Below, in pieces: positions 1 through 3,000 of a stretch of DNA of 13,285 bases. The DNA comes from a virus (lineage: Duplodnaviria; Heunggongvirae; Uroviricota; Caudoviricetes): IMG/VR virus record IMGVR_UViG_2609459822_000007. One strand, given 5' to 3'. The position numbers are program-made. The first letter of the stretch is position 1, and each line of letters begins with the position of its first letter.

Positions 1-3000
1 AGTAATGGCTGGGTGGAAATCGACAACAACATCGCAGAGAACGCCTTACGGGGAGTGGCCGTAGGCCGGAAAAACTGGATGTTCGCGGGTTCCGACAGCG
101 GTGGTGAACATGCGGCGGTGTTGTACTCGCTGATCGGCACATGCCGTCTGAACAATGTGGAGCCAGAAAAGTGGCTGCGTTACGTCATTGAACATATCCA
201 GGACTGGCCGGCAAACCGGGTACGCGATCTGTTGCCCTGGAAAGTTGATCTGAGCTCTCAGTAAATATCAATACGGTTCTGACGAGTCGCTTACCCTAAA
301 GGTGTGCAGCCGATTACAAATTTTGACGCCAACCGCTACCTCGGAAAGTGGTATGAAATAGCTCGCCTCGAGAACCGGTTCGAACGTGGTCTGGAACAGG
401 TCAGCGCTACTTATGGAAAACGGAACGACGGAGGGATTCGTGTACTTAACCGTGGATACGATCCAACGAAAAATAAATGGAGCGAGAGCGAAGGTAAAGC
501 ATACTTTACTGGAGATACTAAAACTGCAGCGTTGAAGGTTTCGTTTTTTGGCCCCTTCTATGGTGGCTATAATGTAATCAAACTGGATGATGAGTATAAG
601 TATGCTCTTGTCAGTGGTCCGAACAGAGAATACCTATGGATTCTGGCAAGGACCCCAACTATTCCAGATAAAGTAAAAGCAGACTATGTGCGAACCGCTC
701 AAAAGTTGGGATTCAATGTCAATGAATTATTATGGGTTAAACAATAAAATCCCTACCCGAAATAATACTTATTAGAAAAAAACCAGCCTTTGGGGAGGCT
801 GGCTAAATCAGGAAACAAGCTGTTATATGATAATAACTACGTTGCGATTCCAACATTTAAAATGTTAGACTAATGAGAATCAGACAGCAACTTTTCCTTT
901 AATTATTTCGAACAATCAGCATCCATCTCCAATCGGAGATCCAACACCATCAGCATACCCTCCACTACGCCCTCAGCTTTCTGGAGCATCCTGCCAACCC
1001 AACAATCAGATCGCCCATGCTTACGTGCAAGCGCCATAAAAGTCATGCCGCCGACATAATAGTCCACCAATAAATCATGCAAATCGCTGTTGTTCTTTTT
1101 CAGACGGGCCATGCACCCGCAAATGATCATCGCGTCATCGTCACAACATTGTGGGCGAGATTTTACTTTTGAAGGAATTAATCCCTTAAAACCGGCGGCA
1201 ATGGACGACCAGGTCACATCTTCATGATTATTAGCCGCCCACGCTCCCCAACGCTCAAGAACCATCTGAATATCACGCATCAACTTACTCCACAAAACTC
1301 AGACCAGAACGCCAATTACAAGCAAAAATCAACAAAACAGTATTAGTTGATTGTTATCTCTGACTTCATACTCCTGCTCCTGTCAGGGTTTTGGCGTAAT
1401 TCTTCAGTATTCGGTAATCGGTCAAAACAGAGCCGGGGAAACGATATAAGCGCAGGCGCATCCAGCGGTGGCGAAGAAGTTCTGCCATATAAAACTCAAA
1501 CATCATTCATCTCCCTGTTCAGTGATGGTCAGTTCCAGCTTTCCACCTTTGATAACAGGCATCTTCACAACGCGGTAATCAACGACCTGAGCATCATCCA
1601 GCCAGAAACCTGCTTTAGTGAGTGCGTCAAAAGCGGCTTTTTGCAGATTATCCAGGTCACGGCTACGGCGATCCGGCATGTGACACTCAATGCGGATTTT
1701 CACAGGCATAGCCAGGCCGATATCCAGCATTGCGTTTTTAATGATTCGGGCGACGTTATCGCGGTATGCCTGCCCCCTCTGCACTGACGTGCGTGCGCCC
1801 GCGATTATGGCGGTAATAGCGATTATTGCTCGGAGGCCAGGGTAATGTGATACTGTAGGTATTCACGCCTTAATAACCCCCTCTTTCAGCCAGATAACCT
1901 GTGTTCTCGCCATACCTTCCAGCGCGCATTCTTTTGCATATGCAGCATCGACAAAATGTGTGCGGCGGTCGATTTCGTCGTGGCAGGCAGAACATGCAAT
2001 GGTGGCAATCAGGTCTGGCGGTTTGATACCGGTACCGCACAATCCAGCCAGCCGGATATGTGCCAGTACAGACGTTTCAGAATTGCCATTACATACGCCA
2101 GGGATTCTTACCTGGCATTCCCGACCACGCGCTGCTTTTCTCAAATCAGCCATGATTCCTCCTTGCTGCCAGTCGCAACCATTTTTTATCAACCAGGCTA
2201 GCGGTATATCCGAGCAGTGTTGGTATTTCGGATGGTTTCAGCTCAGGCCTACGCTTACGACGATTTGATACTCTGTAGATGTGTCCGTTCATGACACGAA
2301 TAAGCGGTGTAGCCATTACGCCTCCTGCTTGTCGCGGAGCAGCTGGAACTCGCAGCTCTGCGGAATAGTCAGGTGGCAGCCAATATTCATCGCCCAGGCT
2401 TCAACCTTACACAGGAAGACATACATCTCTCCGGTATCAAGGTCGGAGGTATGGCGTAACGACTGGATAGTGGTGATATCACCGGTTACGACATCAACCA
2501 GGTCTTTGGTTTCATAACCGAGATATGTGTGTTTGAGAGCATCTTTTACCCAAGCTGGAGTGGCGAACGTTTTACCCCTGCTGATGAGGTATTCACTGAT
2601 TTCGCTGTACCACATGTGGCTGAGTGCATTCTGGGAAAGACTGCGTTTCTCACGCCATATTTCCAGACATCTGTTATCACTTAACCCATTACAAGCCCGC
2701 TGCCGCAGATATTCCCGTGGCGAGCGATGCCGACCGATAGCGGTGAAGTTGCCGCGATGTAATTTGATGCCGTCTTGTGAGAGGTTCACGCTTCACCTCC
2801 GCAGAGGTCAAACGCTAGATGCAAAGAATTGCAGGTGCATTTCTGCATCTGTGAAGGGAGAAGAGAGTTTGGATTGTATGTGCGCATAAACGTCCCCGTT
2901 TAGCGCAGAAGTCACCGGAGTTGTTCAGGCTCCGGTGACATAATTATGCCGTGTTGATTTCCCAAAATCAAAATCGATAGAATTGCTCCTTCTTAAAACA

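Follow-up and report, generated by a model that had tools for sequence, protein, structure and literature searches.

An inherited single-G insertion as the probable origin of a rusA pseudogene in a DLP12-type lambdoid prophage

The Holliday-junction resolvase gene rusA in a 13,285-nucleotide stretch of prophage DNA (hereafter the window) is split by one extra G, and we consider it very probable that the frameshift is a real pseudogene, derived from a single ancestral +1 G insertion that has since been inherited, and that it belongs to the ordinary decay of a cryptic DLP12-type prophage. Three observations make an inherited mutation the best reading: the five-G allele occurs in 58 complete genomes, it lies on one haplotype, and an intact sister allele differs from it by one G. 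The original prediction had left a choice between true inactivation by a frameshift, a sequencing error in the homopolymer and phase variation, and the first of these is by far the best, as the allele was found in those 58 complete genomes and in one metagenome contig, always on the same haplotype. The presence of five G in this particular genome would follow by parsimony from its relatives, and the window allele itself, which has a mosaic patch at its 3′ end, was seen once.

The rusA gene and its two reading frames

The features of the gene, all on the minus strand, are as follows.

1503..1866, minus strand: pseudogene of the Holliday-junction resolvase gene rusA in a DLP12-type lambdoid prophage; 364 nt, one more than the intact 363 nt
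1773..1777, minus strand: G5 homopolymer and site of the +1 G insertion; CCCCC on the plus strand, G4 in intact alleles
1756..1866, minus strand: N-terminal frame, 36 aa; encodes RusA residues 1-31 followed by AGIPR and ends at TAA
1503..1772, minus strand: +1 frame; RusA residues 32-120
1662..1664, minus strand: AGC codon of the R68S change, in the arginine-rich DNA-binding loop

Read on the minus strand, rusA starts with the GTG at 1866. After codon 31, frame 0 continues as GAG GGG GCA and reaches a TAA stop at 1758-1756, and the +1 frame in the three-frame translation ends with ...LTITEQGDE and a TGA at 1505-1503. The ORFs and the three-frame translation thus confirm that rusA is divided between adjacent frames at CCCCC 1773-1777, as had been noticed at the outset. 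The run is exactly five G long on the minus strand, and removing one G brings back a single rusA frame of 363 nt and 120 codons, so that the proposed single-base insertion was borne out. The four G that the prediction gave for intact rusA were likewise found, as GGGG, in AP027899, O157:H16, CE10 and AR_0013.

The repaired translation scored 77.7 bits (E=1.5e-21) against the Pfam RusA profile PF05866, for which the curated cut-off is 22.8 bits, and it aligned end to end with RusA of PDB 1q8r at 115/120 identical residues (E=8.5e-77). The +1-frame fragment by itself scored 60.9 bits (E=2.4e-16) over profile positions 25-123. All of the catalytic residues of RusA (D70, D72, D91 and K76) are encoded, and they lie in the +1-frame part, where the D70 and D72 codons occupy 1658-1656 and 1652-1650 and where the arginine-rich loop 66-69 with R69 is also found. 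The single uninterrupted frame of about 120 codons that would unite the N-terminal loop 13-28 with the catalytic core is, by contrast, absent from the window rusA. Since frame 0 comprises 36 codons and the remainder of the gene lies in the +1 frame, we class rusA, as judged from its reading frames, as a pseudogene of the RusA family PF05866 rather than a functional member.

An ORF of 93 aa (1503..1784) extends the +1 frame upstream to a GTG at 1784. An independent function for it was considered and rejected: it would lack residues 1-28, the part of RusA that touches and probes the junction, no Shine-Dalgarno-like sequence was recognisable upstream of GTG 1784 when the sequence was read by eye, and the sole promoter-like match nearby (1851-1822, 9/12) is at chance level, with five such matches found against 3.2±1.9 expected. 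In the collections searched, the exact 93-aa ORF was encoded by the source contig alone.

Prophage neighbourhood

The window is the whole of the draft-WGS contig JHDK01000121.1 of assembly GCA_000601355.1, and its ORFs were confirmed against annotated near-identical genomes. The gene order ybcL-ybcM-ybcN-ninE-ybcO-rusA-ylcG-Q is the one annotated in CP031833, Nord58 and CE10. With this nin-region module, the window is, on its gene content, a DLP12-type lambdoid prophage.

13-264, ORF: C-terminus of an IS66-family transposase (ISCro1-like)
304-747, plus strand: lipocalin gene (Blc-like), 5′-truncated; 525 nt when intact
About 903-1280, minus strand: antiterminator Q
1366..1506, minus strand: ylcG, downstream of rusA
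1863..2153, minus strand: ybcO (DUF1364, PF07102); WP_000774488.1, the same protein as annotated in relatives
Beyond ybcO, in window order: ninE, ybcN, ybcM, ybcL, ybcK, emrE, ren, P, O and a YdaT-like gene
9899-10654: cI-like S24 repressor, 251 aa, intact
After the repressor: gam, bet and the start of exo

Both ends of rusA are tied to neighbouring genes. The ybcO stop and the rusA GTG overlap by 4 nt (GTGA), an arrangement of translational coupling, and the rusA stop overlaps the ylcG ATG by 4 nt (ATGA, 1503-1506), with GGGAG directly upstream of that ATG. The full early region (exo, bet, gam, the cI-like gene, O, P and ren) is kept (window 3004-9024), and the DLP12 cargo genes emrE, ybcK, ybcL and ybcM sit between ren and ybcN; the window prophage is presumably a more complete version of the K-12 DLP12 layout.

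One end of the window breaks off inside the IS66-family element, as is typical of short-read assembly breaks. The 3′ end of this element (window 1-294) adjoins the lipocalin gene (295-747). In Nord58 this IS also lies beside the lipocalin gene, of which 194 bp more are missing, and the other close genomes listed (H42-H55) match from 295 on, the IS not being joined to the locus there.

Distribution of the G5 allele

Relatives of the ybcO-rusA-ylcG stretch are present in 3,540 of the 5,426 complete E. coli genomes that formed our comparison set. An 81-nt query centred on the G run matched 58 of the 5,426 at 100%, that is, with five G, and these 58 are to be set against about 2,450 complete genomes having the 81-nt stretch. 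Among 29 records without G5 that were sampled across the ranking, the matched span was one base shorter than the query (80 against 81, or 78 against 79). The carriers, from human, dog and chicken hosts as well as from surface water and wastewater, represent several continents and were sequenced in many laboratories. At least three of them, 28Eco12, 266917_2 and NMBU_W05E18, have been typed as ST38, and NMBU_W05E18 has been reported as phylogroup D (PMC6963479, PMC7311804).

Over its full length the window is 99.5% identical to G5 genomes such as Nord58 and NMBU_W05E18, with 98-99% of its length covered. In both carriers whose annotation was inspected, CP031833 (strain 2452, locus D0R13_RS11090) and CP139846 (strain Nord58, locus U0535_RS06520), RefSeq/PGAP lists rusA as a 'frameshifted' pseudogene of 364 nt. 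The rusA frameshift is therefore already known as an annotated pseudogene in public complete genomes; in the literature we found no specific description of this pseudogene, the RefSeq annotations being the only records. The exact window rusA was found in no complete genome, the best match being 98.8%.

A pattern tolerant of run length (3 to 6 bases at the run) retrieved the locus from 78 metagenome contigs and 3 GTDB representative genomes. Four G were present in 78 of these 81 loci, and the remaining three had G5, G3 and GGGA, respectively. The G3 lies in a metagenome contig of 1.5x coverage (L060, 4189-4227) and the GGGA in another (L032, 2809-2848).

Linked haplotype and a probable parent allele

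The G5 allele is marked by two linked substitutions, namely a silent T six bases upstream of the run (AGT in place of AGC) and an AGC codon by which the arginine-rich loop has Ser in place of Arg68. The combination of T and S68 was common to all G5 carriers checked, including the sole metagenome G5 (contig L055). In all, 63 complete genomes have the 81-nt stretch that surrounds S68, namely the 58 G5 carriers and five others; 56 carriers are among the 60 S68 genomes listed, the other four being AR_0013, CE10, OZ546943 and 23CRST032.

Two of the five non-G5 genomes with S68 were checked. Both CE10 (O7:K1) and AR_0013 have an intact 363-nt rusA with four G (WP_001099715.1), identical at every position bar one G to the frameshifted gene of CP031833 and Nord58, so the comparison with intact alleles of related prophages that had been suggested at the outset yielded a counterpart one base away. 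The context ybcM-ybcN-ninE-ybcO-rusA-ylcG-Q-lipocalin in these two genomes is also that of the G5 carriers. Because S68 sits in the intact CE10 and AR_0013 alleles, R68S is older than the frameshift; R68S as a sign of decay after inactivation was discarded for the same reason.

The following history best accounts for these observations. An insertion from G4 to G5 after codon 31, most plausibly through replication slippage, would have arisen once, on an allele already having the silent T and R68S, for which the CE10/AR_0013 type is the likely parent. The mutated allele would then have been inherited vertically by a lineage including the ST38 clone and the genome from which this contig derives. 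The frameshifted allele has undergone no further decay relative to CE10, which suggests that it is young.

Alternative explanations for the G run

Because the source is a draft WGS contig and this exact rusA allele was found in that contig alone, the fifth G might be an artefact, with four G and an intact rusA in the real genome; homopolymers are classic sites of indel error. We regard this as very improbable, given that the closest whole-window relatives (99.5%) have five G too, that the window has the T and the AGC that mark the G5 haplotype, and that G5 is found in 58 complete genomes from unrelated projects. An error would need to hit exactly the state expected by descent and so recreate the allele of the relatives, which speaks against the sequencing-error reading of the original prediction. 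Five bases are moreover a short run for systematic error, and a second nearby G5 run, in ybcO (alignment columns 312-316), is the same in all genomes compared. Reversible changes in run length that switch RusA on and off would also place the lesion in a homopolymer, and G3 was seen in the complete genome ET474 and in the low-coverage metagenome contig. The run has just four or five bases, however, whereas contingency loci usually have runs of seven or more. G5 is restricted to one haplotype: a synthetic G5 query on the common C haplotype had an exact match in 0 of 2,454 complete genomes, and a synthetic G3 query matched one complete genome, ET474 (NZ_CP100954.1, 3045421-3045499), so that G3 is a singleton among complete genomes, while 78 of the 81 environmental and representative loci have G4. 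Recurrent run-length polymorphism across lineages, as would characterise a phase-variable locus, is thus absent from the rusA G run. With G5 on one haplotype and G4 elsewhere, a single inherited event is indicated rather than recurrent switching, and with G3 rare and G5 missing from the common haplotype, the run does not behave as a hot spot of the phase-variation type. The chance that the run is a switch is practically negligible, in line with the low rank it had been given from the start.

A further alternative accepts the five G but supposes that some full-length RusA is still made, either by +1 ribosomal slippage of tRNA-Gly on GGG-G or by transcriptional slippage. After a +1 shift (GGG G to G GGG), the P-site tRNA-Gly on GGG could again be fully paired, and as the +1 frame is open from rusA codon 2 on, any +1 shift ahead of the TAA would give a near-native protein. 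Nevertheless, the site is not a conserved recoding site, since no other rusA allele has the frameshift and the sister allele is read in one continuous frame. In frame 0 the A-site codon that follows GGG is GCA, a sense codon that is not rare in E. coli. RNA folding of the 101 nt that surround and follow the run gave no unusual structure (z=+1.01, with 176 of 200 shuffles folding at least as well), and to our knowledge G5 is too short for appreciable slippage by RNA polymerase. A programmed +1 site of the prfB type would be conserved, would place a stop or a slowly decoded codon in the A site and would have a stimulatory element; the rusA run shows none of these, and we hold recoding to be extremely improbable. 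The same minute probability attaches to the broader idea that the allele is partly alive, whether through a slippage trickle of RusA or through a 36-aa peptide complemented by a re-initiated C-terminal fragment. If that were true, ST38 and its relatives, a widespread clone, would keep a throttled back-up resolvase and not a pseudogene.

Expected functional consequences of the insertion

The paper on the RusA-DNA complex structure (PMC1636454) assigns contact with the junction and its probing to residues 13-16 and a flexible loop (15-28), minor-groove insertion to residues 66-69, and binding of the catalytic metal to D70, D72 and D91. Under the favoured reading of an inherited insertion, translation initiated at the GTG would end after 36 codons and give a peptide with the junction-probing loop and no catalytic residues; this 36-aa product holds strand 1, the DNA-contacting residues 13-16 and loop 15-28. 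The catalytic part (D70, D72, K76 and D91) would be left in the +1 frame without a start signal of its own. As the frameshift parts the junction-probing residues from the minor-groove and catalytic residues, an active resolvase dimer would not be expected from the G5 allele.

In K-12, rusA stays quiescent until an upstream insertion of IS2 or IS10 activates it (PMC1636454). With rusA quiescent in prophages and the host normally having RuvABC, loss of the gene should be neutral, on the assumption of a RuvABC-proficient host. The premature stop, about 250 nt upstream of ylcG, may lower the coupled translation of that gene. The consequence of the loss is accordingly small, given that rusA is a well-studied and normally silent gene and that no phenotype is expected where RuvABC is present. 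From strains of the lineage, rus-type suppressors of ruv mutations should not be obtainable, and the combination of G5, T and R68S could mark an ST38-related clade carrying this DLP12-type prophage. For annotation, rusA of this contig should be entered as a pseudogene, and neither as two short ORFs nor as a silently 'corrected' gene.

Comparison with known alleles and mosaic patches

The nearest characterised system is RusA of K-12 (DLP12 rusA/ybcP; PDB 1q8r, 2h8c and 2h8e; PF05866), which belongs to the same prophage module, ybcN-ninE-ybcO-rusA-ylcG-Q. The window gene differs from it in the frame broken after codon 31 by the extra G, in R68S, and in the C-terminal changes T105I, R109K, M117Q and N119D, which derive from a patch. 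WP_001099715.1 of CE10 and AR_0013 shares the T/AGC haplotype and the context, including Q and lipocalin, but has four G and 120 codons. In the CP031833/CP139846 pseudogene, G5, T and AGC are identical to those of the window, and the flanking prophage is 99.5% identical over about 13 kb, whereas rusA differs at nine positions in its 3′ third (the silent position 183 and a patch at 314-355), with further differences in ylcG and in a ybcN patch.

1387..1552, minus strand: mosaic patch in ylcG and the rusA 3′ end, with 14 substitutions in 166 bp relative to ST38-type genomes

The flanks of this patch have almost no substitutions relative to ST38-type genomes, and the patch alters the 17-residue C-terminus of RusA, for which AP027899 has a similar but not identical sequence. 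The stretch at 1387-1552 resembles a short segment acquired by recombination from another lambdoid allele, which would imply that the dead rusA still exchanges sequence with other lambdoid prophages.

Two further differences were seen elsewhere in the prophage. A ybcN patch at 2658-2727 is highly divergent and, on balance, 18 bases longer than in Nord58, and the window ybcN ORF is 157 aa long against the 151 aa (456 nt) annotated in relatives. The cI-like repressor of Nord58 is 'frameshifted' through the loss of one A of an AAA (window site 10575-10577), a second small homopolymer indel of this prophage, opposite in direction to the extra G of rusA.
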